Virus record (IMG/VR): IMGVR_UViG_3300025128_000023
DNA length: 64,000 bases
From: an uncultured virus (IMG/VR IMGVR_UViG_3300025128_000023)
Taxonomy: Duplodnaviria; Heunggongvirae; Uroviricota; Caudoviricetes
Direction: 5' to 3' (one strand)
Position numbers and translations under genes: made by a program
Notes under the pieces: model-generated
Seen by the model: the letters and a program-made list of their open reading frames with translations, nothing else
Told to the model about the DNA's origin: nothing
Database searches by the model: none
Shown: positions 251 through 64,000 of the stretch, piece by piece
Layout of the letters: each line of letters begins with the position of its first letter
Position numbering within the stretch: position 1 is the first letter of the stretch

Positions 251-270
251 TTTAATTGTTTTTTAGTGTT

Positions 271-332
271 AAATCTGACACCGAAAAAATCGGTGTTTCG
301 TAGGTGTTTAAACCTTTACTCATCGGAGATTT
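271..332 (-). ncRNA. Type I hammerhead ribozyme (core variant CCGAUGA)
   Basis: Minus strand reads AAAUCU-CCGAUGA-GUA(AA)GGU UUAAAC ACCUAC-GAAA-CACCGA UUUUU UCGGUG-UC-AGAUUU. Stems I, II and III pair; GUC cleavage triplet present. Confidence 0.8.
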
Positions 333-333
333 T

Positions 334-822
334 TTAACTTCTTTCAATTATTTCATCCTCGACTTCTTTTATTAGTTCTTCGGTTATTCTTTGCCCTCTA
401 AAATCACAGATGGCTTTGAGATTATACATCAATTCTTGCCCTCTCCAATATGCATAATGATTTACTAATTTTTCGGCATTGTCAAAGGTGTTGTTTATCT
501 CTCCAAAGTTTTCTTTTTCTTGCTCTTGGCAATATGTAATTAAATCGAATGTATTTAGATTATTTTCTTTTATAAATTGCTCGGCTTGATAATAGCCAAT
601 AATAAAATAATCTTCATTAAATAAATGATGGTGCAAGTCATCAAAATATTGCCCCTCATAATTTTCGATATTATCGGCAATATGATTAATTAAATCTAAG
701 TCGGCTTCTTGTGTGTGTGCATTCATATTAATTGTTGTTTGTGTTGGTTCTACTTTTGGAAATCTTTTTGCTATATATTTTTTTAGCTCTTCCCCTTTTA
801 ATTCTGTTGTTAAATTACTCAT
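334..822 (-). CDS. Acidic early protein, possibly Ocr (T7 gp0.3)-like antirestriction DNA mimic
   Basis: Acidic; DDLHHHLFNEDYFIIGYY resembles the Ocr DDLH...HYY segment; first substantial gene after the early promoter. Confidence 0.45.
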   Translation of the reverse strand: MSNLTTELKGEELKKYIAKRFPKVEPTQTTINMNAHTQEADLDLINHIADNIENYEGQYFDDLHHHLFNEDYFIIGYYQAEQFIKENNLNTFDLITYCQEQEKENFGEINNTFDNAEKLVNHYAYWRGQELMYNLKAICDFRGQRITEELIKEVEDEIIERS

Positions 823-31922: not shown

Positions 31923-32837
31923 ATGGCATATATAACACAATATACATATTACGAAAATAATGGTAACACTCCCACAGATGCTAATCTTGGTTCTTATCAG
32001 TATGTTTCTTTGCAAGATATAGTCAATAACTTTATGTTAATATATCAAGGTAATCACGAACTGGTAAATAACTTAGAAAGATATCAAGTTTTATTTCATG
32101 CTAAAAGAGGTATACAAGAATTGAACTATGATGCGATGAAAGAAATTAAAGTTCTTCAGTTAACTTTAGACCATAACTTTAGCTATCCTTTACCATCTGA
32201 TTATGTTAACTGGGTGAGAATATCTCAGTATAAGGATGGGGTACTTTACCCTTTGACTGAAAATATACAAACTAATTTTAGTTCAGCTTATCTACAAGAC
32301 AACAACTCTGAGTTGTTGTTTGATCAGAATGGTAATGTTTTAAGACCACAAGATTCTCAAGTAGATTTAAGTAGAGCAACAAGATCAATTTATCTTAACA
32401 ATGACAGTGATTTTGATGGGTGTGAGGGGTATTGCATAGATGGGTGTTGGTATTTTGATTATAGAGTAGGAGCAAGATTTGGACTTAATACTGAAACTGC
32501 TAATATAAACCCTACATTTAAAGTTGATAAACAAGCAGGTAAAATTTATTTTAGCTCTGCGGCAGGAACAGATTCAATAGTATTAGAATATGTGTCCGAT
32601 GGTATGGAAAATGGTGATGACTCACAAGTCAGTGTCAATAAGTTGTTCGAAGAATATTTGTATGCTTATATAAAGTATGCCATTTTAAATGGTCGATTTG
32701 GAGTTCAAGAGTACATTGTTAATAGAGCAAGAAAAGATAAGTCTTCTTTATTAAGAAATGCAAAACTAAGATTAAGTAATATACATCCTGGTAGACTCTT
32801 AATGAATTTAAGAGGCCAGAATAAATGGATTAAATAA
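31923..32837 (+). CDS. Tail ring / tubular structural protein
   Basis: LPSDYVNWVRI and IVLEYVSDG motifs; position. Confidence 0.65.
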   Translation: MAYITQYTYYENNGNTPTDANLGSYQYVSLQDIVNNFMLIYQGNHELVNNLERYQVLFHAKRGIQELNYDAMKEIKVLQLTLDHNFSYPLPSDYVNWVRISQYKDGVLYPLTENIQTNFSSAYLQDNNSELLFDQNGNVLRPQDSQVDLSRATRSIYLNNDSDFDGCEGYCIDGCWYFDYRVGARFGLNTETANINPTFKVDKQAGKIYFSSAAGTDSIVLEYVSDGMENGDDSQVSVNKLFEEYLYAYIKYAILNGRFGVQEYIVNRARKDKSSLLRNAKLRLSNIHPGRLLMNLRGQNKWIK

Positions 32838-35800: not shown

Positions 35801-37558
35801 TGTTATACTTTTGGTAATGGAGTTGAAAGTTTTAAAATCTTAGACAAGATAGCTACCAAAAGCTTAGTAATGGGGCAAAGAGCACTTGCGGTTTCTAATG
35901 CAGATTATAAAGAAGCTGATAGATTTGCAGGGTTAACATATAGTGGAGTGTTTAGTTATTCTACAAACACTAACAACTTAAATGAATTTAATTTAGGTTT
36001 AGTAAACTTTATGGACTTAGAGCAAAACTTCGGACCAGTAATGAAATTACATGGTAGAGAAACAGATATACTCGTACTACAAGAAGATAAAATTAGTTAT
36101 GTACAACAAGGTAAAGACTTGTTAAGTGATGCAGTTGGTGGAGGAGCAGTTGTTTCTACCCCTGAAGTTTTAGGTAAACAAATAGCAAGAATAGAGGAAT
36201 ATGGTATAAGTTTTAATCCTGAAAGTTTTATTCAATGGGGTGAGACTATGTATTTTACAGACACTAAAAGGTCTGCAGTAATACAATTAGGAGCACAAGG
36301 GCAAGTTGGTAGTCCAATAAACATTGTGTCTGATATCGGTATGAGGTCTTGGTTTAGAGATCAATTTGTTGAACACCTTACAACACAAAAGTTAGGTGCA
36401 TACGATCCATATATGGATGAGTATGTATTAACAACTAATGATATACAAGTACCTTTTCCTACCACACCAATCAAATGTGGTACTACAGTAACAATAAATA
36501 ATTGTACTGCAGCTAAAACATTTACTATAGATTTCGGTGAGGTAATCGATAGTACAACTACAGTTAGTTTTACAGTGACTGGAACTGCATCTATAACTGG
36601 AGTATGGAATGGAAATAATGCAACTCCTAACCCTTTAAATTTAACTAATGCAACTGGTACATTAACATTTAATAAAAACTTAAATACACCAACTACTGCT
36701 GAAGTAACTATAACACCAACTGGCAGTTGTTCATTTACATTTACTCCAAATTGTCCAGATGAGACTACTTTAACTATTGTTCAAGTGGTATTAAACTCAA
36801 GTCAAGATTCTGGAGACCAAATACATGTAGAATATGGATGGAGTGATACTCAAACAATAAGCCCAATAGCAAGTACCCAATCTACTTTTGGTTCGGTTAG
36901 TACAGTAGCATCTACATTTTTCTCTCAGTCAGGGGTTAGATCATTAGGTATATTTCCATATAATGGTGCTAATTTTATGTTGAGAACAAATAAATTAGAG
37001 GCAGATAATTATAATGTTGGAGATGGTTCTTATAAATTTAGTTTCTTATCCAGTAACACTCAGTATAATAATACTGTTGCGGATATAGCAACTCTTACAT
37101 CAAGTGCAAATTTAATTGGTAGTGGTTTAATTACAACCCCTACACCAGATATTTACAAAGCAGACTTAACACCTGCAACAAATCCAGCATTTAATATACC
37201 AAGTGGAAATCAATACTTATATTTGATATATGATTTTAGAACAGTAAGTGCACAACCACTATGTTATGACTCAGCTTCTACTACAGATGCTTGTTGTGAT
37301 TGTACATTTACATGTACTTCTTGGAGTGCTGGATCAAGACAAGATAGTGTGGCAGTAGCATGTCAACAACCATTAAATAAAACATATTATTTTTTAAATC
37401 AAGCTACTCCACTAACCTATCCAACTGTAGGAAGTTTAGTATATACAAGCTCAGCCTGTGATGCAACAACTGTATTACCAGCAGGGTTTTATAAATATAC
37501 ATTAGGTTATTTTAAAGTTGACAATAATGGAATAGTAATACAACAAGGAACATGTTAA
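32837..37558 (+). CDS. Tail stabilisation / nozzle protein (P22 gp10-like) with Cys-rich C-terminal extension
   Basis: GRMNKSIDERLLPQGEYIDAQN N-terminus; NNLNEFN, YGISFNPESF and YFTD.KR motifs. Confidence 0.75.
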   Translation: MALENVVFVQGRMNKSIDERLLPQGEYIDAQNVRLGSTETTEVGAVENSRGNTQLTTLAFGGQNFSVNATCIGAYEDGITETIYWFVHDPNNPTSGGRLDAIVSYNTQNQSITYHVVSSSILNFQPTYLITGVNLIDDLLFFTDDINPPRKININRSYPYPPSPGYADVLVEEDFNVIQKIPGYGAADTLSAPSLELVTVNGQENYLENRFISFAYRYRYQDDEYSATSLFSLPAFQPNNFLFSPSNYVNEGMLNRFNAVNVSFNTGSSRVKQVDLLYKDSNTNSIYVIERFDKDDYGWANNTTQTFLFTNSKIYTTLGSDELLRLYDNVPRTSKAQTIMGNRLIYGNYVDGYNMTNANGGRISVDYSTSLKSEDIDFEILPDATLSQGIAYTLSGSSIQYNNSLATFNLTDIADKLKKDGIIRFVFRVTTDQLNGDTANPCYLPTFSNGDVQLTLNFTLPSDYNSVYDMVNSSEFQARLGTVLNSNFQPISTCANGTSVTDNFNCALSVPTNCPGWTKHNSSITDASSQQGWALTTSPGSNNVSFQPIAMNFRETNAPVTNLFEYFRFESASVTFSAISDMGSLHSNRDYETGIVYMDNYGRASTVMVSEYNTIFVPAENADKKNSIQARISSLPPSWASRYKFVVKPSKGNYEIIYSNFFYVRPSNNVVYFKLEGDNQNKCKKGDTLIVKRDVNGPRQSLTECEVLDISAEGEDFLATQNELGTSSHQIAGLYMQIKAQNFAVQGDLANPVIENGVENYRSKNENRCNAQVNYPAFITETSGPTYEVYDVPAGSIIDIRCEYGRNDRSGQNCPGRRYVFDKQYVASQNFINLYEWAVGDDFNPNTGIWESGSELTSVFVSTIADSAANIQCTSPNPAEPVWQFWQAGYAGTIDPAQPLYLSVRSGIKGCDNVFGDSYSYIELEIVVTRANELIVWETEPIEANDEIFFDASKDFPITGGFHISGTADGDQNQTATQDAVVDIPFINCYTFGNGVESFKILDKIATKSLVMGQRALAVSNADYKEADRFAGLTYSGVFSYSTNTNNLNEFNLGLVNFMDLEQNFGPVMKLHGRETDILVLQEDKISYVQQGKDLLSDAVGGGAVVSTPEVLGKQIARIEEYGISFNPESFIQWGETMYFTDTKRSAVIQLGAQGQVGSPINIVSDIGMRSWFRDQFVEHLTTQKLGAYDPYMDEYVLTTNDIQVPFPTTPIKCGTTVTINNCTAAKTFTIDFGEVIDSTTTVSFTVTGTASITGVWNGNNATPNPLNLTNATGTLTFNKNLNTPTTAEVTITPTGSCSFTFTPNCPDETTLTIVQVVLNSSQDSGDQIHVEYGWSDTQTISPIASTQSTFGSVSTVASTFFSQSGVRSLGIFPYNGANFMLRTNKLEADNYNVGDGSYKFSFLSSNTQYNNTVADIATLTSSANLIGSGLITTPTPDIYKADLTPATNPAFNIPSGNQYLYLIYDFRTVSAQPLCYDSASTTDACCDCTFTCTSWSAGSRQDSVAVACQQPLNKTYYFLNQATPLTYPTVGSLVYTSSACDATTVLPAGFYKYTLGYFKVDNNGIVIQQGTC

Positions 37559-42652: not shown

Positions 42653-45600
42653 ATGAATAATAAATATTTAGAACAACTTTATGGATGGATAGACTCAAAG
42701 GATAGTTCTTTTAGTGGAAGATACAAGCTGGAAGACTTCGTTACCAATATGGATAATGAAGAGTATGCAGTAAAGATGTATGAGTGGATAGCAAAGAAAG
42801 ACCCCACATTTCAAAAAAGATACACCTTAGACCTTTTCATTGAGAAGGTAAAAAAAAAAGATTTATCTCCCGACGATCCTATATCAGAAAGCATGGACGA
42901 TGCTGGACTTGGGGAAGATTCGGAAGAACAGGGTACAGTGTCACCCTCTATACCTTCTGTTTCCCAACCTTCAGAAGGAGAAAGTATTGAATTTGATGAG
43001 GAATCATTTAGTATAAATGAAGGAGAAGTAGACAAAGAAACATTCCAAGAATATGATGAGCTACAACAAGAGGAACAAAAGATAAGTGCAGATCCTTTTG
43101 AGAATGCACTTAACAATATTACACCCGAATTATTAGCACAAGATGAGGAAGAGTTAGTTCCTGACTTAGCCTACAGATTTGAAAGATATGGCTTTAAGTT
43201 TGACCAAGCAGAAATATTTAGGGACTTCGTTAAAATTTCTTCAGACCAAATCGATCCTACCACTGGTAAGCCTTACGAAATCAAAGTTAAGGTAGATAAC
43301 AAAGATGAAGCAAAAAACCTTCAAGCTGCAAAAGATATCCAAGACTTTATTAGAAAGTATCAAAAGGTAGATACCAGGTTTGAAAAAACCGAAAAAAATT
43401 TAGCAGTAAAAGACAGATTACTTCAAAGTGATGCCGAAGTTGAAAACCAGTTTAAAATACTAAACATTGAAGCAGAAGCATTTAATAACAGAGTACAAGC
43501 TTATATAAAAAAGAGAAGAGTATATCTACAAAAAAAGGCACAAGCAGACAGTCTAACTCAAGAACAAATCAATACAGATATTGGTCAAAGATTCTTAAAA
43601 GACTTAGAACAAGCAAGAGTAATGTTAGATGGTGAAAAAGCAGATTTGTATGCACAGGATGCGTCACTAACAAATAGAGGGTATGAGATAGATATGTTGG
43701 TGGGTAAATACTCTGAGATGAAAGCTAAAAAGGGTAGTTTCTTAGGAGCTACATGGAATGGTATTACTTATGGTATATCAAGAATGTCTGAGAGTTATAT
43801 AGACTATGGTATTACTGCTATGGTAAATGCTATGCCATTTAGCATGATGCTTGGTCAACCTCAATATGAAAAGTCATTTGCTAAGAGAGCTGAAGAGTTA
43901 GGTTTCTTTAATCCTGATGATATAAAAGAACCTTTTGAAAGTTTTGAAGCATTTAAACAATCTTTTTCTCCCGAACAAATAAGTGAAATAAATGCTTATA
44001 TCGAAGACAGAGTATTAAAAAGCAGTAAGTATGATAACATAGAATTTAATGATGATGGTTCAATAACTACTAAACAACTCGATGCTGGAACAAGATACTC
44101 TGATTCATACCTAAAAGATAATATTGGTAAGCTTACTGAAGATGGTATGATGAATTTAGTTAGAGAGGGATATATGATGGCTATTGGTAATGAATCCACT
44201 ACTGCTGAATATAGTGATATGATGAGAGAAGGATTTTGGGGTGGAGCATGGTTAGGACTTGCCGAATCTCTTCCAGCTTTTATTGGACCAGGTGGTTGGG
44301 TAGGAAGAACAGCAAAAATGTTTGCACAAGTAGATAGTCATTTACGAGATGAAATGATGAGAGATCCTGACTTTGCAGATATTAGTGAAGCAGAAAGAAA
44401 AGCAGTAAGCCTTCCAATTGCAGTTACAGTAGGAGCTTTAGAGTATTTTGGTTTGAGGAATGTAATGAATCAAAAAGGTTTACTAAATAAATATGTCTTA
44501 AAAGGATTACAAAAATATAAAGGTGCACATCAAACTCAAGGATTGACATTTAGACAAGTGGTATTAAATGAAATAGAAAGTGATATAGCAAAAGGAGTTC
44601 TTATTATTGGGGCAGGTGGATTAGCAGAATTTGAAACTGGTGTTGCTCAAGAGATAGCTGATATCAGTGGTAAAGTGATTTACAATGAAATCAAAGAGAA
44701 AGACATGTTTCAAACACCTGAATCAGTTAGAGATGCTATTGGACAAATTATGTATGCTGGAGCACAAGAAGCTGTTGGTGGTTGGGTAATGAGTACAGTT
44801 CCTGCAGTTGCTGCGGGTTATGTTGGTAAAGATTATACAGCCATATCCGATCCTATGTTTGAAACTTTTGAAGATATAAGTAATGATGGTACTTTCTATA
44901 AAGCATATGTTCAAAAAATTAAAAATGATATTAACAAGGGTGATATTAATAAAGCAGAAGGGCAGTCTTTGTTAGATGCAGTACAAGACATAAGAGGTAT
45001 AGTACCTAAAGTACCTCAAGACCTCGACACAGAAAGTCGAAAAAAAGCTGTAGGTTTGTTATATAATAAAGCCATCTTACAAAGACAAAGAGAAGCCATT
45101 GCTCCTGAGTTAAGAGGAAAGATAGATAAAGAGATAGGGAAAATTGATACTCAGTTAAAAAATTTAATTGAAGGGGCGAGTGCAGTTAAAGGTACTGAAG
45201 CTAACATCGAACAAGAAGAAGAGATTACCGATACTCAAGCAAAACAGTACATAGAAAAAGAAAATAAAACAAGGGTTAAGTTAGGTTTACCCCCTATAAA
45301 GATGAGCCCTAAGTCTATTGAAGAAGCTAAAGTTGAATTAAAAAAACAAAGAGATGCCAGTAAAGAGCAAAGCCCAGTTCAGGAAACTGGCGAAGTCGAA
45401 TCCCAATCTACTGAAGAAGTGGCTGAAGGAGTACCCGACCCAGTATCAGAGTCTACCGGAACGAGTAACCAAAAAGGCAAAGGTAAAGTTACCCCGAAGA
45501 AAGAGGCGGAAATAGAAGAAGAGGTTGGTGATATACAAGAGTTTGTTGGAGAAACCGAAACTGAAACCGAAGGAGATGTAGTTACACCAACAACTGAGTT

Positions 45601-48600
45601 AGGAGTACAAGAAGAAGTAGATATTGAAACAGAGAATGTTACCAAAGATGGTAAAGTAAAAAGAAGTAAATCTACTACACCAATAGAGACTGAAGTAGAA
45701 GGTAAATTTGATGGTATAGTTAAATTTGCAACTCGAGCTGCAAAAGCAGTCAAAAGAATATTACCTAAAGTAAATATAGTTTTACATGAGTCATCTGAAA
45801 ACTTTCAGAAAGCCACTGGTAAAACTGGTAGAGGTTTCTATAATCCTACAGATCAAACCATACATGTTGATTTAACAAAAGGAAGCAACCGAACAGTTGC
45901 TCATGAAATGTTTCATGCATTGTTATTAAATTCTGTTAAAACTAATGCACAGGCAAGAGAGTTAACTAAAAGAATGGTAAAAGCAGTTGCTAAAGCAAAA
46001 GGTTTAACTAAAGAACAGAAACAAAAGATTGATAACTTCATTAAAAACTATGATACTGATATACAGAATGAAGAGAAGTTAGCAGAAATATTAGGGGTTT
46101 TAGCCGATGGTTATACTAAATTAGATGCTCCTACTAAAAGTAGAATTAGACAATGGGTAGAAAAGATTGCGGCTAAATTAGGTCTTGACATATCATCCTT
46201 TACACAATCAGATCAAGACATAGTTGATTTAATGAATACTGTAGCTCAGAAGATTAGAACTGGAGAAACTATTACTCAAAAAGATGTTAAGGCTCTCAAG
46301 CCTAAAAAGAAAACGCAAAAGCAAAAAGTCAAAGATGTATTGGGTAAAGTTGAAGTTGCTACTATAAAACAAATCACAGAGATAACTGGTTTACCTGAGC
46401 CTACTGTAAGAAGAATATTAGGACAAGGAGCAAAAAGTGGTGAGCTTTCAAGAGTTGCGGCAGGTGTATACACATTAAAAACTAAAGATGGTAAGACTGC
46501 GGCAGTTGTTCAAGGAGCAAATGCTTTGGCTGAAATAAAAAAATTAGTCAAAGAAGGAGCTAAGTTTGATATGATATTCTTAGACCCTCCATACATAATA
46601 CCAGGTGCTCGTGGTGGTAACAGAAACTTAACTAAATACAAACTTATATCACCAGAACAATTCAATGAGTTTGTTGGTGATGTTGTTAAATTACTACAGA
46701 ATCCCGACACACCAGTATTCTTTATGTTTAGTGCATCTAAGTCTAACAAAAAACAATTAGCTAAATACTATGATGCGTTTACTAAAAATGGATTGAAACC
46801 TTCTTCAGTTGCTGCACAGTTTGGTAAACTGGACAAACAAGGTAAACCTAAACAGATGTTCGGTATACCATTGAAAGAATGGATATTTGCATTTAGTCAA
46901 AGTGGTAATCAAAGAACTGATATGGACTTCAGTTTTGATAGAGAGTATGCTTTTGGGCAAGACTCTAATTATCAAACTGCCAAGCCTGTTGCTTTGTTAG
47001 AAGCTATTATAAAAGCATCTACTAAAGCTGGTGAGTTGATACTTGATCCATTTGCTGGTAGTGGTTCGACCGCAAAAGCTGCAGTAAAAACTGGCAGGTC
47101 TGTAGTGACAATAGAAGAAAATGTAGAACAAGCAGAAAACATTAAGAAAGAAGTAAAGCAAGAACAACAAAAGAAAAAAGAAAAAGGAGATCAGTTAGAT
47201 ATCTTCGAAGGCAGAGAACAGAAAGAATCTAAACCCATAGCCGATAGGTATATGATGAGTGCTCGTGGATTTATAAACCCAAGAGCATTGTTTGATACTT
47301 CAAAACTCAGAAGAGAATTAGAAAACATTGGAATGAGATTAGGAACTGCAAGGAATGAGTTTACTGGTGAGATAACTGGTTACTATTTCCAAAAGGTTTC
47401 AAAGAGAGGTAAGCCATATTTTTATAATCCATATGGTAGACAACAAAAAGATATTGATAAAGCGGGAAGTGGTATTTCCAACATTGCAGAACTTATAGTA
47501 AAGTTGAGAGAAACTAACTTTAACCCTGAAGCTATCAAGAAATATTTGTTAGAAAAGAAAAAGATAGCTACTAATGTAGTTAACAAACTAACTGATGCCA
47601 GTACATTTGTATTGAGTAGAATGCCTGAGTCATTCCAAAAACTAAAAGGTGGATTCCTTACTGGTGTAAGACTGTTTGAAAAAATATCTAAGTACAAAGA
47701 CAGACTAACCAACACTAACTTAACTTCTTATGGCAAATCAATAGTAGAATTACAACAAGAGTTAGAAGTTTTACAATCTCAGAAAAATAAAAAGAGAGCT
47801 ATTGCAGCTAAACAAAAAGAGATAGATAATTTAAAAGCAAAAAACCCAGGAGCTAAAATATATAAACTCACCAACACTGAGATAATGACTAAGACTATTG
47901 AGTTTATGAGAAAACAACCTGAGTATATAGCTGTTAAGGATAAGAAAGGATTATCTGTGCTACAAGCTCAGATGGAGATGCAGTTAGAAAAATCTTTCTA
48001 TCAAGCTCCTACTAAAGATATGGCTAATCAAATTAGATTGGCAAGAGCTGTAGTAAACATGCAAACTAAAAATGTTAAGAGTTTGGAGAGGGTAAAATCA
48101 GCTTTAAGAAACTTTATAAGAGTGGTATTCCCTGCAGATATGTATACTAAACCCGAAACATTAAAGTTAGTACAAGAGGTTCAAAATGCAACTTTAGAAA
48201 ATATAAAAGAAGTAAAATCTAAGTTAATGGATATGGCAACAACAAAAATTGTCAAAGGCTTAGAATCAAAGATTGAGAAATTATTAAATAAAGACTTTGC
48301 TAAGGTAGAGGGTGGTAGATTAAAAGCTAAGTTGGTAGACTCACAAACTATAAAACTATTAGAGCAAGTTAAAAGTATTTTTAGTAATGTTCGAAATATA
48401 AAAGATAATCCAAAAAAGATTGAAGCATTAATTCAGAAAAATTTAGATAGAATAGGTAAGTTACAGTCTCAGTCGCTTCAAAACGAAAATACATTTGCAG
48501 AGATTGCTGCATTGGAAATGATTAATGATTATGCTAATACACAGTTGGAGGAAGACTCCAGCTTTGAGAAAGTAGCAGGTTTAAATAGAGTTTTCGAACA

Positions 48601-51157
48601 GTTAAATGAAACAGTAAATGAAGGAAGAAACACATTAGAAGCACAGAAAAGAAGAAGATATCACAGATATCTACGAGACATTGAAATTGCTTGGGAAAGT
48701 ATCACTGGCAACAAAATAGAAATGTTAGTTCCTAATACTAACTACGATCCCCAGTTACCTGAGACTAAAAGTAATTTGAAGATGGTGGTAAACCCTGATG
48801 CTAAAAACATCATGAAAGAGTTTCAGAATCTTACTGATGCAAAGAAAAGACAAGCTAAGTCATTACCAGCTCGAATGGTAAATAGTATAACTGGATGGAT
48901 TAAAAGAAATCAAATAGCTAACATAATGGACTTAACTACTCTTGTTGAGTATATCACTAAAACTCCTGGTAGAATATTTGGAGGTCCTTTCCAAGATATT
49001 ACTGCTCGACTTGTTGATGATGCATCTATAGTTCATAAAGGTTTTCAAATGGAAGATAGAGCAGAGATTGAAACTAATTTACAAGAGATATATGGTAAAG
49101 GGTGGATAGGTAAAATGGAAAATGATTCTTTACTTAGAGATACTGGTATAGCTACAGACTTAGATAAATATAACAAAGCTAAAGCTGAATACAATAGAAA
49201 CAAAACACCTGAAAACAAAATAAAAATGGAGGCTTTACAAATTCATTTATCTCCATACCAAATGGCTTATCACCTAAATCAATATAGAGATCCTGCAAAC
49301 CATGCTTCATATGAAGCTAAGTATGGCAAAGATTATAAAAGAGTAATGAAAGAGATGAGAGAATATATGGAGGCTAATAATTCAGAGGCTTTGGTGTTAG
49401 CTGACTATATGGTAGAACAAGCATATCCAAGATTGTATGAGAGATATAATAAAACCTATAGAGCAGTATATGGTATGGACTTACCTTGGAGTAAAAACTA
49501 TGGTGGGCAAATATTTAGAGAGGGAGTAGAACCAGGTGAAATTAATTTATTAGCTGATGGAGGAGGAGCATTTGCTGGAATGGCTGCACCATCCTCATCA
49601 AAAGTTAGAAGTAAAAACAAGATACCTATTAGAGATATGGATTTGATGAGAAGCTTTATAGCTTATCAAGAACAAATGAACTGGTTTGCTGCATATGCAC
49701 CATCTTTAAATAGAATAAATAAATTGTTTAGAAACCCTAACATAAGCGAAGCTATTGAATCACAATACCCTGATGGTTTTTATAACATGATACTAAATCA
49801 AATAGAAACTTTAAACACTAAAGGTATCAGTAGCACTCGATCAGAACAGTGGTTGAACATAGCAACTACTTACTTTGTAGTAGGTAGGCTTGGTGTGAAC
49901 CCAACTATCTTCTTGAAACAGTTAGTGTCCTTCCCTACATATGCGAATGATATAGGTTATAGAAACTGGAGTAAAAATGCAGCTCTGAGTATAGGAGAGA
50001 TAAGGACTTTAATTAAAGAAATAATGAATAACTCTGTGTATATACAAGACAGATATGGTAAAGCTATAATTAAAAACTTAGAAAACTTTGTACCGAGCTC
50101 TGACTTCGAATCGAAACTGACTACTGGTACATTCCAAAAAATACTTGATGGAACTATGTGGTTGGTAAAACAAGGAGATAAGGGAGCAATACTTATTGGT
50201 GGAGTACCATTGTATAAATATCATAAAAATAAAATAAGAAAAGAAAACCCAGGTCTTACTGAGCAACAAGTGATTGATAGAGCTATAAGAGAATTTGAAA
50301 TAGCAACAAGACAAACACAGCAGTCTACTGATTTACAAAACAGAGACTATACACAAACAAGAGGTATCTTCCAAAGGACAATGAATATGTTTAAAACCTC
50401 TATCAGATCTTATTTAAGAAAAGAAATTATATATGGAAGAAATATGTATAAGATAATAAGATCGTTTGGTAAAGAAGGAAGAGGTACATTCGGACAAAAC
50501 TTGAGAGGATTATTTACTTATCATGTGGTGCTTCCAGTATTCTTCCAATACTTGTCGGCTGGACTACCTGGTGTATTAGCACCATGGGATGATGAAGATA
50601 AAACTGATCTTACAAGAGCAGCTCTTATTGGTAACTTAAATGCATTGTTTGTTATGGGTGATATATTAGCAATGTTTGCTGATGCTATTACTGGCAAACC
50701 TTGGGAGGCAGATGTAACCGACATACCATTTATTGAACAAATGGAACTGTTAGCTAATTTAGTTAAAAGAATTGAAACCACAGAAGATGAAGAAAAAAGA
50801 AAAGAACTTTATCAGAAGTTCTTTATGGAAGACTTACCAGGTTTCTTTGGTTTAAACTTAAAATCTCTTAAAAGATACAAGAAGAATATAGAACAAATTA
50901 TGAAGGATTCTTCAGATCCTAAAGAAGTTTTATTAAGATTGTTTAACTTTAGTGAGTTCCAAATAAAAAGCGATGAAGAAAGAAAGAGAAAGAAGCCAAA
51001 GAAAATGAGCAAGAGTGATTTGAAAAAATATTTCCCTGAACTCTACAAACAGATAGAAGAAAAAAGAAAGATGCCTGATGATGTACAAGATCAGATAGAT
51101 AAAATTAAAAGAGAACAGAAAAGGTTAAGAGAAGAAGCATTAGAAAAATCATCATGA
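42653..51157 (+). CDS. Giant polyvalent/ejection protein with zincin-like HExxH, winged-helix and N6/N4 DNA methyltransferase domains
   Basis: HEMFH at ~45902; wHTH at ~46340-46480; DPPY at 46583; KPVALL...ILDPFAGSGST at ~46980-47070. Confidence 0.8.
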   Translation: MNNKYLEQLYGWIDSKDSSFSGRYKLEDFVTNMDNEEYAVKMYEWIAKKDPTFQKRYTLDLFIEKVKKKDLSPDDPISESMDDAGLGEDSEEQGTVSPSIPSVSQPSEGESIEFDEESFSINEGEVDKETFQEYDELQQEEQKISADPFENALNNITPELLAQDEEELVPDLAYRFERYGFKFDQAEIFRDFVKISSDQIDPTTGKPYEIKVKVDNKDEAKNLQAAKDIQDFIRKYQKVDTRFEKTEKNLAVKDRLLQSDAEVENQFKILNIEAEAFNNRVQAYIKKRRVYLQKKAQADSLTQEQINTDIGQRFLKDLEQARVMLDGEKADLYAQDASLTNRGYEIDMLVGKYSEMKAKKGSFLGATWNGITYGISRMSESYIDYGITAMVNAMPFSMMLGQPQYEKSFAKRAEELGFFNPDDIKEPFESFEAFKQSFSPEQISEINAYIEDRVLKSSKYDNIEFNDDGSITTKQLDAGTRYSDSYLKDNIGKLTEDGMMNLVREGYMMAIGNESTTAEYSDMMREGFWGGAWLGLAESLPAFIGPGGWVGRTAKMFAQVDSHLRDEMMRDPDFADISEAERKAVSLPIAVTVGALEYFGLRNVMNQKGLLNKYVLKGLQKYKGAHQTQGLTFRQVVLNEIESDIAKGVLIIGAGGLAEFETGVAQEIADISGKVIYNEIKEKDMFQTPESVRDAIGQIMYAGAQEAVGGWVMSTVPAVAAGYVGKDYTAISDPMFETFEDISNDGTFYKAYVQKIKNDINKGDINKAEGQSLLDAVQDIRGIVPKVPQDLDTESRKKAVGLLYNKAILQRQREAIAPELRGKIDKEIGKIDTQLKNLIEGASAVKGTEANIEQEEEITDTQAKQYIEKENKTRVKLGLPPIKMSPKSIEEAKVELKKQRDASKEQSPVQETGEVESQSTEEVAEGVPDPVSESTGTSNQKGKGKVTPKKEAEIEEEVGDIQEFVGETETETEGDVVTPTTELGVQEEVDIETENVTKDGKVKRSKSTTPIETEVEGKFDGIVKFATRAAKAVKRILPKVNIVLHESSENFQKATGKTGRGFYNPTDQTIHVDLTKGSNRTVAHEMFHALLLNSVKTNAQARELTKRMVKAVAKAKGLTKEQKQKIDNFIKNYDTDIQNEEKLAEILGVLADGYTKLDAPTKSRIRQWVEKIAAKLGLDISSFTQSDQDIVDLMNTVAQKIRTGETITQKDVKALKPKKKTQKQKVKDVLGKVEVATIKQITEITGLPEPTVRRILGQGAKSGELSRVAAGVYTLKTKDGKTAAVVQGANALAEIKKLVKEGAKFDMIFLDPPYIIPGARGGNRNLTKYKLISPEQFNEFVGDVVKLLQNPDTPVFFMFSASKSNKKQLAKYYDAFTKNGLKPSSVAAQFGKLDKQGKPKQMFGIPLKEWIFAFSQSGNQRTDMDFSFDREYAFGQDSNYQTAKPVALLEAIIKASTKAGELILDPFAGSGSTAKAAVKTGRSVVTIEENVEQAENIKKEVKQEQQKKKEKGDQLDIFEGREQKESKPIADRYMMSARGFINPRALFDTSKLRRELENIGMRLGTARNEFTGEITGYYFQKVSKRGKPYFYNPYGRQQKDIDKAGSGISNIAELIVKLRETNFNPEAIKKYLLEKKKIATNVVNKLTDASTFVLSRMPESFQKLKGGFLTGVRLFEKISKYKDRLTNTNLTSYGKSIVELQQELEVLQSQKNKKRAIAAKQKEIDNLKAKNPGAKIYKLTNTEIMTKTIEFMRKQPEYIAVKDKKGLSVLQAQMEMQLEKSFYQAPTKDMANQIRLARAVVNMQTKNVKSLERVKSALRNFIRVVFPADMYTKPETLKLVQEVQNATLENIKEVKSKLMDMATTKIVKGLESKIEKLLNKDFAKVEGGRLKAKLVDSQTIKLLEQVKSIFSNVRNIKDNPKKIEALIQKNLDRIGKLQSQSLQNENTFAEIAALEMINDYANTQLEEDSSFEKVAGLNRVFEQLNETVNEGRNTLEAQKRRRYHRYLRDIEIAWESITGNKIEMLVPNTNYDPQLPETKSNLKMVVNPDAKNIMKEFQNLTDAKKRQAKSLPARMVNSITGWIKRNQIANIMDLTTLVEYITKTPGRIFGGPFQDITARLVDDASIVHKGFQMEDRAEIETNLQEIYGKGWIGKMENDSLLRDTGIATDLDKYNKAKAEYNRNKTPENKIKMEALQIHLSPYQMAYHLNQYRDPANHASYEAKYGKDYKRVMKEMREYMEANNSEALVLADYMVEQAYPRLYERYNKTYRAVYGMDLPWSKNYGGQIFREGVEPGEINLLADGGGAFAGMAAPSSSKVRSKNKIPIRDMDLMRSFIAYQEQMNWFAAYAPSLNRINKLFRNPNISEAIESQYPDGFYNMILNQIETLNTKGISSTRSEQWLNIATTYFVVGRLGVNPTIFLKQLVSFPTYANDIGYRNWSKNAALSIGEIRTLIKEIMNNSVYIQDRYGKAIIKNLENFVPSSDFESKLTTGTFQKILDGTMWLVKQGDKGAILIGGVPLYKYHKNKIRKENPGLTEQQVIDRAIREFEIATRQTQQSTDLQNRDYTQTRGIFQRTMNMFKTSIRSYLRKEIIYGRNMYKIIRSFGKEGRGTFGQNLRGLFTYHVVLPVFFQYLSAGLPGVLAPWDDEDKTDLTRAALIGNLNALFVMGDILAMFADAITGKPWEADVTDIPFIEQMELLANLVKRIETTEDEEKRKELYQKFFMEDLPGFFGLNLKSLKRYKKNIEQIMKDSSDPKEVLLRLFNFSEFQIKSDEERKRKKPKKMSKSDLKKYFPELYKQIEEKRKMPDDVQDQIDKIKREQKRLREEALEKSS
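45354..45515 (+). CDS. Overprinted small basic protein (53 aa) in the +1 frame
   Basis: MPVKSKAQFRKLAKSNPNLLKKWLKEYPTQYQSLPERVTKKAKVKLPRRKRRK; A-rich leader; locally raised GC. Confidence 0.6.
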   Translation: MPVKSKAQFRKLAKSNPNLLKKWLKEYPTQYQSLPERVTKKAKVKLPRRKRRK

Positions 51158-51429
51158 AAAAACTAAAACAATTTAGTATAGAAGACTTTGATGAATACTC
51201 TTGTATGTATAACAGTTATTTGGTTCTAACTGGTAAAGCTACTTATGAAGAGATATTAGAAAAAGATGATGGGGCGGCTTTTATTTTTAACCCTACCAAA
51301 CATTATGTTCCCTTAGATGATGATGCCTATGATATACTTATGGAATACTTTAGCGAAATAGAAGAGTATGAAATGTGTGGAGAACTATCCAAAGCTAAAT
51401 CTTTAGCATCTGTAATATCTCTTATTTAA
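51154..51429 (+). CDS. Hypothetical protein
   Basis: ATGA-coupled ORF; C-terminal YF...EEYE.C..L. Confidence 0.7.
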   Translation: MKKLKQFSIEDFDEYSCMYNSYLVLTGKATYEEILEKDDGAAFIFNPTKHYVPLDDDAYDILMEYFSEIEEYEMCGELSKAKSLASVISLI

Positions 51430-59849: not shown

Positions 59850-60439
59850 TATTTCAAATGTTTACCGAGTTCCTTCTTTACCGTAGTAGTAACCTTATAT
59901 TTAGTTGAAAGGTTTTTAACTATAGCACTCAGACCTAACTCTTTGTTAGCAACAACATACTTCAATACCTTATCCCAGTTATCATCATCTACTTGTAACT
60001 CATAAGTTACATTCTTTGGTTGAGAGATTTTTTTCTCAGTAGCACTTATAACATCTTCTCCAACCCATAAAGACAATCCTAATCCATGCATTGCCACTGC
60101 CTTAGCAGTAGACCTTTGAATAGCAGTGTTAACATCCATAGATGTAATCTTTTCTATTCTGATTGAATTGTTTCTGAAATCCATTATAGGTAGGTAATCG
60201 ATATGCTCTATATCATTTATAGTAATACCGACTTTAACATAAGCAGTTCTGCCATCAGTAAAAAAGTTCAAGCCAGTAGCCTGATCCTCATAAACATTTC
60301 TTTGTGCATTGGGATATCTTAATTTAACGAATGCCCAAGCATTAGCCCAAGATAAATAATCAAAGTTTCCTTTTTTCTCTACCTTATCTTTGATGTTGAC
60401 TTTAGCCAACTCTTCAAAATAATTGTTTTGTTTTGCCAT
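59849..60439 (-). CDS. Sak3/DUF1071-like single-strand annealing protein
   Basis: YLSWANAW, LPIMDFRN, QRS.AKA.AMHGLGL...GED. Confidence 0.85.
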   Translation of the reverse strand: MAKQNNYFEELAKVNIKDKVEKKGNFDYLSWANAWAFVKLRYPNAQRNVYEDQATGLNFFTDGRTAYVKVGITINDIEHIDYLPIMDFRNNSIRIEKITSMDVNTAIQRSTAKAVAMHGLGLSLWVGEDVISATEKKISQPKNVTYELQVDDDNWDKVLKYVVANKELGLSAIVKNLSTKYKVTTTVKKELGKHLK

Positions 60440-60445
60440 TTAATT

Positions 60446-60841
60446 TTAATTTAATTGATTTAACTTCTGTTTTAATTTAGTATACTTATTTAGTATATTT
60501 TCTCTTCTGTTTTTTAAGTTCTGTATATGCTTATCATTCTTCCTGGTGTTAACCTCAGTCTTAATTTTATCTTCAATCAATCCCAACTTAAACAAGCAGT
60601 TTGATATGGATAAATTAACAGAGCCTCTTCTCCAACCACCATGATAGAAGATATTATACTCATCTTCATCTAATATCTTATAGTAGTCTCCACCCTTATT
60701 CATATTGAGCATCTCAATCCTATCTCCAAATCTTTGCATCCTCACACCCGATCCGATAATCAACTCTCCCTTTGGGACTTGTTGTAGGACCGCCGATGCA
60801 TCCCCAAGTGCTTGTAACCATATCTCTTCTAAACTATACAC
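60446..60841 (-). CDS. Hypothetical protein
   Basis: ORF. Confidence 0.75.
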   Translation of the reverse strand: MYSLEEIWLQALGDASAVLQQVPKGELIIGSGVRMQRFGDRIEMLNMNKGGDYYKILDEDEYNIFYHGGWRRGSVNLSISNCLFKLGLIEDKIKTEVNTRKNDKHIQNLKNRRENILNKYTKLKQKLNQLN

Positions 60842-61130
60842 TCTCTTTTATTTTATTAACCAAGTGTTTGTAGTCAGGATCGTTGTCTATAAGTTTCTTT
60901 GCTCTTTCATATCCATGAAGGATAGAACTCATAGGAACATCATAGCCATGATCCTCTAAATAAGACTTAATAAATGTAAGTCTAATTGGTCGTTCCATAC
61001 ATAGCAGATATAATATCTGTCGTGCATCAACTTGGTTTCTTCTTTTAGATTTTTCGAACAACTTGTCCATTTCTAAATGAAATGCCTTCGCTACAGCTTT
61101 AGCATACTTTTCGAATATTTCTCTTTTCAT
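60834..61130 (-). CDS. DnaA domain IV-like HTH protein
   Basis: VAKAF...KSKRRNQVDARQILYLLC...SSILHG. Confidence 0.7.
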   Translation of the reverse strand: MKREIFEKYAKAVAKAFHLEMDKLFEKSKRRNQVDARQILYLLCMERPIRLTFIKSYLEDHGYDVPMSSILHGYERAKKLIDNDPDYKHLVNKIKESV

Positions 61131-61456
61131 TTAAATTCTTTTAATTTTTCTCGTTTTGATTCTAATAACTTATCTTTAATTACTTGGTCCTCTTTTAATA
61201 TTTGTACTTTAAGCAGAATTAAATATCCAATCAAATCTTTAAGTGTGTCCTCTGACTTCAAAGGATCATCAAAACCTAACTTCTTGATTCTACTTAACTT
61301 GTCATCTATTCGTGCCAAGATTCCTTCCTTAGCCGATAGCTTACTAAATATTTGTGGAGGATGATTGGCAGTGTCTCCATAGTTCTTGTTCTTTTCTATA
61401 AGTAACATCACTACTTCTCTTCCCACTTCTTTTATAAAGTCTGCAGTATTTTTCAT
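61127..61456 (-). CDS. Nucleotide modification associated domain 1 (DUF1599-like) protein
   Basis: KNKNYG...RIDDKLSRI...EDTLKDLIGY; start moved to ATG 61456. Confidence 0.75.
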   Translation of the reverse strand: MKNTADFIKEVGREVVMLLIEKNKNYGDTANHPPQIFSKLSAKEGILARIDDKLSRIKKLGFDDPLKSEDTLKDLIGYLILLKVQILKEDQVIKDKLLESKREKLKEFK

Positions 61457-61623
61457 TGTGTAAATAAAATTAGTAATAATGTTAAGACTAAACAAACAAA
61501 GGAGAAAGTAAACAACTTCATGTCTCTTGTATATCTCTGATCAGACTTGCCTTGTCTACTTCTAAATAGCCTTACTTTTTTTCTTTTCAGAATCTCCTTA
61601 CCCTCATTTATATAATGTTTCAT
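61453..61623 (-). CDS. Small membrane protein (56 aa)
   Basis: Manual translation ...FRSRQGKSDQRY...LFTFSFVCLVLTLLLILFTQ; ATGA overlaps at both ends. Confidence 0.6.
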   Translation of the reverse strand: MKHYINEGKEILKRKKVRLFRSRQGKSDQRYTRDMKLFTFSFVCLVLTLLLILFTQ

Positions 61624-61805
61624 TTTTTTGTTCTTAGCTTTTTAATAATTCTTATTGCTTGTTTCATTTTTTTGTCCAGGTGGTTTTCTAAAGCCTCTAC
61701 CCTGTGCACTAAAAAATTGATACGATCTTCGTTGTAATTCATAGCTTCTTTAAGTTTTTTGTTTTCGTTATATATTTTATCTATACTACTCATCTTTAAA
61801 TCCAT
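61620..61805 (-). CDS. Small coiled-coil protein
   Basis: ORF. Confidence 0.6.
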   Translation of the reverse strand: MDLKMSSIDKIYNENKKLKEAMNYNEDRINFLVHRVEALENHLDKKMKQAIRIIKKLRTKK

Positions 61806-61977
61806 ATACTATCCAGGACTTATCAGTTTCGCCTATGGCATCACTGATCCACCATTCATTATTTCTATTATTGAAATACTCAATCTCACTCATTAAGTGA
61901 TCTTGCTCAAACTCTTTCGAGATAATTACTTTGCCACTGTCCTTGACAGACCAAAGCTGTGTAAATAGGTCTTCCAT
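61786..61977 (-). CDS. Hypothetical early protein
   Basis: ORF. Confidence 0.6.
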   Translation of the reverse strand: MEDLFTQLWSVKDSGKVIISKEFEQDHLMSEIEYFNNRNNEWWISDAIGETDKSWIVYGFKDE

Positions 61978-62266
61978 CTACCACCACAAGCCCACACCTT
62001 TTGAGTGTGAGCTGGGCAGTTCTAAACTAACTAATTATAACACTTGATCCATAAGTAGACTAAATAAAGTAGTGTGGATCATCACTATCTTTATCGCTTT
62101 TATATTCTTTAATAGGAAAAAGGTCTGACAGAAATTTGTCAAAGACTTTCTCTTGGTACTTTATCAAGTTAGCTTGATTGTTCTTACTTTGTTTTGATTT
62201 AACCATAGATTTAATTTTAATTATAACACACTTGCAAATAAAAGGAATTTCTAAATCAATTCCAAA

Positions 62267-62452
62267 TTATTTCTTTTTAAATTTTATTATTTCAAAATTT
62301 TTAGCCCCAAAGGGTGCTTGTTGTTCTGCTTTTTGAATGGCTTGTCGAGGACTTATTGCCTCGACTTCCACTCTATCGTAATCGTAGCCACAATCTTCAT
62401 CTCCATGAAAATGCAGAAACCAATACTCAACTATATATTCCTTTATTGGCAT
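62267..62452 (-). CDS. Hypothetical early protein
   Basis: ORF; VEA.S...AI..A motif. Confidence 0.65.
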   Translation of the reverse strand: MPIKEYIVEYWFLHFHGDEDCGYDYDRVEVEAISPRQAIQKAEQQAPFGAKNFEIIKFKKK

Positions 62453-62841
62453 AATCCAGTCCCCCTTGTTATTCCAGTTTGAACAAACTCCATAACCTCT
62501 ATCTCATTGTGCTCTATATTGATTGTGCCCATATCATCAAACTCTTCTCCCCTCCATCTCACACGACCAGTGATTGAAAGGTTGTTGGGTTTGAAGAAAT
62601 ACTTTATTAAGTATTCTAACCAATCGATGTAGCTATAAAACTTCTCGCCCCCATCCCATATTAAATAATGAGTGTCGGCATATTCTTCTACAATCCATTG
62701 TAGCCATATTGAAGGCTTTCCATTTGGTTGATAACCATCTTCGTGCCTTGTTTCATAAAGAGTGTTCATTGCTTTTAACTCTTTCTTTGTCAGTTTACGA
62801 TTAAATTCAAACTGACCATCAAATTCTGTTGTATATCCCAT
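62443..62841 (-). CDS. Phage hypothetical protein
   Basis: MGYTTEF.G...WDGGEKFY.Y..WL.YLI...G.V.W.GE. Confidence 0.8.
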   Translation of the reverse strand: MGYTTEFDGQFEFNRKLTKKELKAMNTLYETRHEDGYQPNGKPSIWLQWIVEEYADTHYLIWDGGEKFYSYIDWLEYLIKYFFKPNNLSITGRVRWRGEEFDDMGTINIEHNEIEVMEFVQTGITRGTGLCQ

Positions 62842-62843
62842 AA

Positions 62844-63236
62844 TTATAAATTTTTATATTGTTTTAATTGATTATTAACTGAGTCCAGGAGATAGGTTGT
62901 TACCTCCGATTGCAGATCTGCAACATAGTCCCAAAAGTATTCAAGATGGTTGTCCAGATCCTCTACAGCTTTAAGACTAAGATTAGGATCATGCTCTCGG
63001 ATGTCTCCTAAAATTCTCATCACATAAGTATTTAATTCATTTTGAAGAAAATCTATTGGCTTCTTGTCATAGTTATGCAAGTGTGTCCACTCTATATTAA
63101 AGGTCAACAAACTTTCGTAGTCTTCCTTTTCTCTATATGAGTTGTGGTCTTCTAACCACTTATCGACATCATTTGTTACTCCTACTATATACTCTCTCCC
63201 AGTGGATTCAGTATATTTAATTATTGCTATTTTCAT
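62844..63236 (-). CDS. Hypothetical early protein
   Basis: ORF. Confidence 0.7.
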   Translation of the reverse strand: MKIAIIKYTESTGREYIVGVTNDVDKWLEDHNSYREKEDYESLLTFNIEWTHLHNYDKKPIDFLQNELNTYVMRILGDIREHDPNLSLKAVEDLDNHLEYFWDYVADLQSEVTTYLLDSVNNQLKQYKNL

Positions 63237-63247
63237 ATTAATTTAAA

Positions 63248-63463
63248 TTAATTTTTAATTATTTCAGTTACCTCTTCAATCTCCAAGTCTAACTCACTTG
63301 CCACATAATTAATGTGCTTTTGAGTTGTTTGAGACCAGTAGCCCAGTTGATAAAGTTTGTTATTAACTCCATCAATCTGAGCCACTCTCGTTGAATAAGA
63401 GTAGATGTCATCACCTACTCTTGTCAAGTTCGCTTTGTATTTGTCAAATTTTTCTATTGCCAT
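63248..63463 (-). CDS. Small phage early protein
   Basis: SYST.VA...(Y/W)S.TT.KHIN motif. Confidence 0.75.
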   Translation of the reverse strand: MAIEKFDKYKANLTRVGDDIYSYSTRVAQIDGVNNKLYQLGYWSQTTQKHINYVASELDLEIEEVTEIIKN

Positions 63464-63473
63464 ATCCTTTAAT

Positions 63474-63602
63474 TTAAATTGTTATACCTAAAAAGAATAC
63501 TGCATAAGACATATACACAATGCCAAAGCATGCTAATGTTCCCAAGATCCAAGCTACTCCCATAAAGAAGTAGTGTGTAATAATACTGATTTGATTTTTC
63601 AT
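63474..63602 (-). CDS. Small membrane protein (42 aa)
   Basis: Manual translation MKNQISIITHYFFMGVAWILGTLACFGIVYMSYAVFFLGITI. Confidence 0.6.
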   Translation of the reverse strand: MKNQISIITHYFFMGVAWILGTLACFGIVYMSYAVFFLGITI

Positions 63603-63621
63603 AAATTTAATTTTTAATTAT

Positions 63622-63698
63622 ACATTGACTTTCATTTGAAGGGGAGGCAACCTCCCCCATTTAAGTTTCGCCTTGCTCTCAAAGGCTCATCAGAATGT
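63622..63698 (-). ncRNA. Type I hammerhead ribozyme (canonical core)
   Basis: Minus strand reads ACAUU-CUGAUGA-GCCUU UGAGAGC AAGGC-GAAA-CUU...GGGGAGG UUG CCUCCCC...AAG-UC-AAUGU; GUC cleavage site. Confidence 0.92.
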
Positions 63699-63700
63699 TT

Positions 63701-63844
63701 CTAATCGTAAAATTTGTGACCTTGATTCTCGTGCCAACTATTAAAGGCATTTGGATATTCTCTCATCACATAGTTGTGAAGGTCCATCAACTCCTCGATT
63801 TCTTGTATCAATTCTTTTTTACTCATCTTTTTATAGTAATTCAT
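63701..63844 (-). CDS. Small hypothetical protein (47 aa)
   Basis: Manual translation MNYYKKMSKKELIQEIEELMDLHNYVMREYPNAFNSWHENQGHKFYD. Confidence 0.65.
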   Translation of the reverse strand: MNYYKKMSKKELIQEIEELMDLHNYVMREYPNAFNSWHENQGHKFYD

Positions 63845-63854
63845 ATTTATAGTT

Positions 63855-64000
63855 TTAAAATAATTCTTCTTGTGTTTTTTCCCACTTATCTATCTCAGAT
63901 CTGATCTGAGATTCTTGATCAAGAATATCTTTACAATATTCTATCAAGTCTTTTAGTGATTCTATTTCACTATCGGAGGTTGTTTCATAGTCTATGAAGT
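63855..64000 (-). CDS. Hypothetical protein, 3' part only
   Basis: Open frame ...FIDYETTSDSEIESLKDLIEYCKDILDQ...EELF*. Confidence 0.55.
   Translation of the reverse strand, partial: FIDYETTSDSEIESLKDLIEYCKDILDQESQIRSEIDKWEKTQEELF

Follow-up and report, generated by a model that had tools for sequence, protein, structure and literature searches.

A predicted type I hammerhead ribozyme in the early gene block of a marine podophage

The early gene block of a marine podophage related to Flavobacterium and Cellulophaga phages carries on its minus strand an element (63698..63622) that is very likely a genuine type I hammerhead ribozyme and would cut a long transcript after C17 into separate messages. 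The element was found in a stretch of 64,000 nucleotides (IMG/VR record IMGVR_UViG_3300025128_000023), which at its full length is referred to here as the window. Its hammerhead motif is complete, it is placed between two genes on the coding strand, and hammerheads in the same layout recur among related phages. Transcription would be expected to run through the site, and the RNA would then be cleaved, with probable effects on the stability or translation of the resulting messages. The assignment draws on reading of the sequence, a descriptor scan combined with shuffles, a constrained fold and Rfam matches that stay below cut-off.

Genes for a large terminase, a portal protein, virion proteins and a GroEL-like chaperonin lie on the plus strand of the window. 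Between about 64000 and 51900, the minus strand holds a block of small open reading frames (ORFs) followed by replication-side genes, i.e. those for a Sak-like annealing protein, an exonuclease, a primase/helicase, a methyltransferase and a helicase. Plus-strand genes are absent from the gene block of the hammerhead. The terminase is closest to that of an uncultured podovirus (71% identity) and next closest to those of podophages of Flavobacterium, Cellulophaga, Tenacibaculum and Maribacter, with 43% for the listed Flavobacterium phages. The G+C content of the window is 33.6%. DNA of the phage was present in at least 20 sequencing runs from 14 studies, mostly labelled as marine metagenome, and among the runs listed none is on record as RNA; the window itself may derive from some of these runs. 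A DNA search of named phage records with window positions 62800-64000 gave no match, and the nearest virus record (G001) covers neither of the two hammerhead regions of the window. No tRNA was found when the window was scanned for tRNAs; hence, there is no link of the hammerhead to tRNA processing. Two very large ORFs are located on the virion side of the plus strand, at 42653-51157 (2834 aa) and at 32837-37558 (1573 aa), and the shorter of them matches a PHROG virion structural protein.

On the minus strand, the element begins with the 5' strand of stem I (63698-63694), which leads into the core CUGAUGA (63693-63687; C3 U4 G5 A6 N7 G8 A9). Stem-loop II (63686..63670) comprises 5 bp, formed by 63686-63682 with 63674-63670 and closed by the pair G10.1-C11.1, and a 7-nt loop UGAGAGC (63681-63675). 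It is followed by GAA (G12 A13 A14; 63669-63667) and by stem III, whose first pair is A15.1 (63666)-U16.1 (63628). Stem III has 4 bp adjoining the core; beyond these, a constrained ViennaRNA fold placed a small internal loop, a 4-nt bulge and a G+C-rich tip hairpin of 8 bp with a UUG loop (63658..63640). The cleavage triplet GUC occupies 63629-63627, with C17 at 63627 so that nucleotide 17 is not G. The cut is predicted between 63627 and 63626, and the 5-nt 3' strand of stem I (63626-63622) completes the element. Hence, both core strands, the A15.1-U16.1 pair and a non-G position 17 are present, as are the core-adjoining pairs of all three helices (U2.1-A1.1 of stem I, G10.1-C11.1 and A15.1-U16.1). 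In agreement with the topology of type I, both ends of the RNA leave via stem I, with stems II and III forming closed hairpins. The stems, core, loop II, GAAA, GUC and cut site named in the original prediction were all borne out by this reading.

In the constrained fold stem I can be extended, beyond a 3/1 internal loop, by 5 further pairs (63706-63702 with 63620-63616); with this extension stem I overlaps the stop codon of the upstream ORF. The pair counts of the type I parse are thus 5+5 for stem I, 5 for stem II and 4+2+8 for stem III. The 3/1 internal loop of stem I, taken together with the design of the 7-nt loop II, gives a hint, and only a hint, of a possible tertiary contact between stem I and loop II.

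The element lies between two small minus-strand ORFs known from the ORF list and the sequence. The upstream ORF (63701..63844) encodes 47 aa and ends with a TAG stop codon (63703-63701) 2 nt ahead of stem I and within its possible extension. Its product has no PHROG match; the ORF is 100% identical in contig L131 and lies inside the 99.2% match of L139 to the window. The downstream ORF (63474..63602) encodes a hydrophobic protein of 42 aa and starts with an ATG at 63602. The gap between them measures 98 nt, the largest seen among the minus-strand ORFs listed for 60000-64000, and it is filled by the hammerhead in sense orientation. If the RNA is cut, an A/U-rich leader of 24 nt (63603..63626, as read from the sequence) would be left on the downstream message. 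The ORF list and the sequence thus agree with the predicted placement 2 nt after the TAG and with the AU-rich leader that reaches to the ATG at 63602. In a separate gap of 82 nt on the minus strand (61978-62059), a G+C-rich hairpin of about 17 pairs was observed just ahead of the ORF starting at 61977. The 91-nt stretch that includes it folds at -25 kcal/mol (z -2.1), and it has no Rfam match.

No Shine-Dalgarno motif was found in the leader (63603..63626). Leaders of this kind are consistent with a Bacteroidota host. Similar A/U-rich strings are located on the minus strand at 62208-62228, 63246-63266 and 63605-63625, each at or near the ATG of an early ORF; the last of them belongs to the leader that cleavage of the hammerhead would release. 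The search for such strings gave four matches, with 0.49 expected and an equally high count in one of 100 shuffles; the fourth match is on the plus strand (919-939). The strings at 62228-62208 and 63266-63246 precede ORFs that have no ribozyme. This likeness among leaders fits a common start-site module, upstream of which the ribozyme may have been added.

Hammerheads in the window and in related contigs were searched with a descriptor of our own, which comprises CUGANGA, stem II, GAAA, an A-U-closed stem III, a non-G base at the cut site and stem I. In the window it returned the hammerhead at 63698..63622 and one weak site with stems of 3/3/4 bp (51071-51179). Of 28 loci around homologues of the 132-aa gene (62443-62841), 11 contained complete type I hammerheads, encoded on the same strand as the gene, and six loci had two copies. 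When 20 of these loci were run against Rfam, five had a Hammerhead_1 match above cut-off, with compact copies scoring 35.9 versus 34 bits. Further, viral contigs were searched with a second pattern consisting of the fixed core plus the first three pairs of stem III. It was found in 14 contigs, 11 of which also have a paired stem I of at least 4 bp and a paired stem II of at least 3 bp. The related contigs hold one to three type I hammerheads per locus, several of them with two or three copies within 2.4 kb. Individual traits of the window's element recur as well. Stem III tips of G/C runs resembling its own are present in the hammerheads of L029 and L035, and its 17-nt stem-loop II design is found again in L038 and L039 (loop UGAGAG or UGAGAU plus one base) and in L037 (UGAAAU).

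The layout was counted over 28 hammerheads with distinct context, many of which come from related contigs and are thus not independent. In 19 of them, 0-10 nt separate C3 from the end of an upstream stop codon that closes an open frame, and in 22 an ATG that opens an ORF follows 21-35 nt past the cut. Pairing was assessed in an alignment of 21 elements over the 12 pairs that are unambiguously anchored by the core; MAFFT alignments of elements with mixed stem II and III lengths were structurally consistent only in the outer pairs. Pairs were formed in 96.8% of the cells of the 21-element alignment as compared to 65.5% in shuffles (none of 500 as high) and to 22-37% with the partners slid, and both sides change in 9 of the 12 pairs; since the elements had been chosen by a descriptor or pattern that demands part of this pairing, the figures to some extent reflect that choice and do not amount to an independent test.

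Other copies of the window's own element turned out to be identical to it. A metagenome scan yielded 17 loci, four of which pass the descriptor, and L131 and L139 hold the element letter for letter. In addition, contigs of four DNA runs showed no difference from the window inside the element when compared over 63000-64000. The exact 29-nt string of core plus stem II had no match in viral contigs, and the 130-aa neighbour protein (62844-63236) had no relatives there. No diverged ortholog of the copy at 63698..63622 was found, so its stems have no covariation support of their own. Conservation and covariation of the stems in related phage contigs, which had been proposed as a test, were therefore seen for the phage hammerhead family, and none was seen for this copy, of which the only other copies found are identical. 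The closest relative (contig L001/L043) shares 84-89% protein identity in the neighbouring genes and 89% in the 71-aa protein. Upstream of the 71-aa gene, L043 has a different ORF and no ribozyme, and 80 loci around homologues of the neighbouring 71-aa protein contained no hammerhead under the descriptor.

A second hammerhead-like element with type I layout is located on the minus strand at 332..271. It was recognized by its sequence, its fold and a covariance model (R1) that we built from five compact relatives and ran unfiltered over the whole window, where it gave the best match (333..270, minus strand; 24.7 bits, E 7e-4). In its core, CCGAUGA, the position of U4 is taken by C. Stem I has 6 bp, stem II has 3+3 bp with a 2-nt bulge, GAA is present, stem III has 6 bp and is A-U closed, and C17 is at 277. 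The element starts 1 nt past the TAA (336-334) of ORF 334..822, and a leader of 26 nt separates the cut from an ATG at 250. Both elements of the window thus share the order of stop codon, ribozyme, leader of about 25 nt and ATG. The Rfam model RAGATH-1-hammerhead matched the second element partially (21.7 bits; cut-off 56.3). No relatives of it were found in viral contigs by an exact-stem pattern or by way of the upstream 162-aa protein.

Changes of U4 strongly lower activity in minimal hammerheads. On this ground the second element may be slow or dead. No mention of a U4-to-C core variant was found in the portions of PMC3088659 and PMC7151607 that were available. Contigs of the phage in DNA runs are about 71 kb long, which places about 7.6 kb of it outside the window. 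If the genome is circular, the second element would lie upstream of the element at 63698..63622, in the same direction of transcription, across these approximately 7.6 kb.

Several of the hammerheads are located where related genomes cease to match. Contig L131 (1-1772) matches the window with 100% identity from 64000 through the last base (63600) of the ATG at 63602-63600, past which the two sequences are unrelated. From the same ATG, an unrelated ORF of 71 aa replaces the one for the 42-aa hydrophobic protein, i.e. the mosaic joint is at the start codon. Five further loci were compared at their first hammerheads (L004, L007, L012, L019 and L023, with C3 at 715, 450, 1469, 1207 and 473, respectively). 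The DNA past the hammerhead is similar in all ten pairs (80-98%). The 442 bases before it gave no match in six pairs, matches of 25-57 nt in three and a full match in one. The ribozyme marks the upstream edge of a conserved cassette in the five loci. Hammerheads of this phage clade thus sit at genome-mosaic joints; this may be coincidence since mosaic joints of phages fall at gene boundaries anyway.

To evaluate folding of the element, ViennaRNA was run with the three helices enforced and the core held open. Varying with the flank included, the hammerhead fold lay 1.0 to 4.2 kcal/mol higher than the unconstrained minimum-energy fold. A competing 7-bp hairpin (about 63705-63687) can cover the first five bases of the core, and the unconstrained optimum that contains it was better by 2.6-2.7 kcal/mol at two intermediate flanks and by 4.2 kcal/mol at the longest. 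Beside the core, stem III consists of just four A/U-rich pairs, followed by internal loops. The weak core-side part of stem III and the partly covered core would be expected if the element were a hammerhead by descent that is slow or inactive and decaying, with the G+C-rich hairpin and the gap serving only as intergenic spacer or stabiliser. Decay evidently does occur in this genome, given the U4-to-C change in the core of the second copy, and the closest relative, which lacks the element, shows it to be dispensable. Against decay, all core letters are intact in the copy at 63698..63622, and the element is unchanged in contigs of several metagenome runs and even where the downstream gene was swapped. 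Moreover, weak stems III are very common in active natural hammerheads, according to the sections of PMC3088659 used here. We therefore regard a decaying hammerhead as unlikely.

Among local structures the G+C-rich hairpin has the highest stability, and it is retained in the centroid fold, so that it might be the functional unit alone, acting as a terminator or as a barrier to 3' exonucleases next to incidental hammerhead letters. A terminator-like match does cover it (63641-63657), but on the plus strand; this match is weak, with one found versus 0.9 expected from shuffles, and the block has no plus-strand genes. On the sense strand the hairpin is trailed by only two U, and a terminator reading of the stem III hairpin was ruled out there as no terminator was called. 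Since a bare hairpin would leave the exact core, stems I and II and the cut-site triplet unexplained, it is very improbable that the hairpin is the whole of the functional unit.

How often a hammerhead of this quality arises by chance in A/T-rich phage DNA was estimated with the descriptor, counting as strong those hits with at least 5 bp in stem II, 4 bp in stem III and 5 bp in stem I. Strong hits were absent from 200 shuffles and occurred twice in 2200 dinucleotide-preserving shuffles, or about once in 1000 per window. This rate is not negligible over very many windows and is not decisive alone; the rest of the case is carried by the intergenic placement on the sense strand and by the relatives. 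The element lies exactly between a stop and a start codon, the 31 extra bases of its stem III themselves form a coaxial hairpin, and its loop II design recurs in other phage hammerheads. Relatives have hammerheads that pass Rfam in the same layout, and the same window contains the second hammerhead-like element in that layout. A chance match to the hammerhead consensus is thus highly improbable, even though no Rfam model passes on the element.

The Rfam search by which the original prediction was to be checked formally failed. At gathering scores, no match was obtained over the whole window. The best one was to Hammerhead_3, with 27.7 bits versus a cut-off of 48.5 (E 5e-4 over 301 bases and 0.11 over the window), and this partial match was the only ribozyme match in the window at E up to 5. 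No match of Hammerhead_1 (RF00163) was listed for 63698..63622, where it is outcompeted by the overlapping Hammerhead_3 within clan CL00010. The Hammerhead_1 model has the same topology, core and helix order as the window's copy but expects a short stem III. Of the Rfam models, RAGATH-1-hammerhead (RF03152) alone aligned the whole element, and did so in type I arrangement, at 14-16 bits versus a cut-off of 56.3. Its hammerhead half (model positions 22-77) aligns to both elements of the window with all three helices; its 5' part (positions 1-21) has no counterpart in them, and with scores below cut-off neither element is a member. Our own model R1 gave 12.8 bits (E 1.3) on 63698..63622.

The low scores can be attributed to the length of stem III, which is 39 nt. 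Well-formed type I hammerheads with stems III of 37-46 nt are present in L029, L035 and L042. In the records of L029 and L035 (G008 and G009), Hammerhead_1 found nothing at E up to 1; in that of L042 (G007) it gave only an 11.6-bit match, whose position was not matched up with the hammerhead there. In a Flavobacterium phage (genus Elemovirus) and one record of an uncultured podovirus, RF00163 found nothing above 12.7 bits. We therefore take the failed gathering score to reflect a shortcoming of the models and not of the element.

A type III hammerhead cutting after GUC at about 63720, inside the upstream ORF, is suggested by the best Rfam match, since the alignment to Hammerhead_3 spans 63725-63660, and is most unlikely: stem I would be a single closing pair around 22 unaligned bases, stem III would contain two non-standard pairs, and the score barely fell when the upstream part was withheld (26.4 bits compared to 27.7 bits for the full alignment), so that the score comes from core and stem II alone, which are all that the model really covers. 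The type I parse, with 5+5, 5 and 4+2+8 pairs, is the best one. The earlier assignment to type I is upheld by it, by the relatives in the same layout, of which five exceed the Hammerhead_1 cut-off, and by the type I alignment to RAGATH-1.

If the element at 63698..63622 is an active type I hammerhead, it would work on a long transcript of the minus strand, in which the stretch separating the 47-aa ORF's stop codon from the following start codon would fold into the three-helix ribozyme. Self-cleavage of the nascent polycistronic RNA would then take place after C17 (between 63627 and 63626). It would leave a 2',3'-cyclic phosphate on the upstream piece, which would keep the folded ribozyme with its stable G+C-rich hairpin as its 3' end. 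The downstream piece would begin with a 5'-hydroxyl and a short unstructured leader of 24 A/U-rich nucleotides, followed by the ATG. Neighbouring cistrons would thereby likely become separate messages, each with a stability and a translation start of its own. The folded ribozyme may shield the upstream message at its 3' end, the 5'-hydroxyl end of the downstream message may be attacked poorly by 5'-monophosphate-dependent decay, and the downstream start might be freed from its upstream context.

The recurrence at mosaic joints invites a further proposal, which we put forward tentatively and consider rather doubtful. The hammerhead together with the leader might be a portable boundary module at mosaic joints that insulates new cassettes, with stem III capping the upstream message and conserved letters aiding exchange. 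If so, the cut in the message would separate a newly acquired cassette from whatever is upstream of it, the upstream message would be protected at its 3' end by the long stem III with its G+C tip, and the conserved letters would serve as a homology patch for cassette exchange.

Perreault et al. (2011, PLoS Comput Biol, PMC3088659) described and tested phage and prophage hammerheads in intergenic positions, where they flank individual genes of polycistronic RNAs. As reported in the parts of that paper drawn on here, polycistronic prophage RNAs were cleaved in vitro as fragments of approximately 2 kb, and cleavage of the A. tumefaciens set was also observed in E. coli. The copy of haloviruses HF1/HF2 is located 13 nt before the start codon of an early gene, and a mapped 5' end falls within three nucleotides of the cut. 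The element of the window shares with these phage hammerheads, as far as they are covered there, the consensus core, the three helices, an intergenic site on the coding strand and multiple copies in related genomes. As in operon-punctuating hammerheads, it lies between phage genes of the coding strand, with a second copy in the window (332..271) and copies in related contigs. The role proposed there, cutting of long phage transcripts to gene-length messages, would be the same, and like the halovirus copy the hammerhead stands shortly ahead of the start codon of an early gene.

Differences from the systems in the available text of PMC3088659 are also apparent. That text stresses type II copies and pseudoknot contacts in bacteria, whereas the window's copy is of type I. 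The latter has a 39-nt stem III with a G+C-rich tip, and its activity is predicted here from the sequence. It comes from a marine podophage of the Flavobacteriia type, with leaders that have no Shine-Dalgarno motif.

The element is a further example of a kind of phage hammerhead known since 2011 and leaves existing knowledge unchanged. It adds a well-formed type I hammerhead to marine Flavobacteriia phages whose leaders have no Shine-Dalgarno motif. Moreover, because the Rfam models miss phage copies with a long stem III, model-based counts of phage hammerheads are too low. The layout described here also gives concrete material for addressing the biological role of phage hammerheads. With the fixed layout, the position at mosaic joints and a natural U4-to-C variant, insulation and stabilisation of single-gene messages by phage hammerheads could be put to the test.
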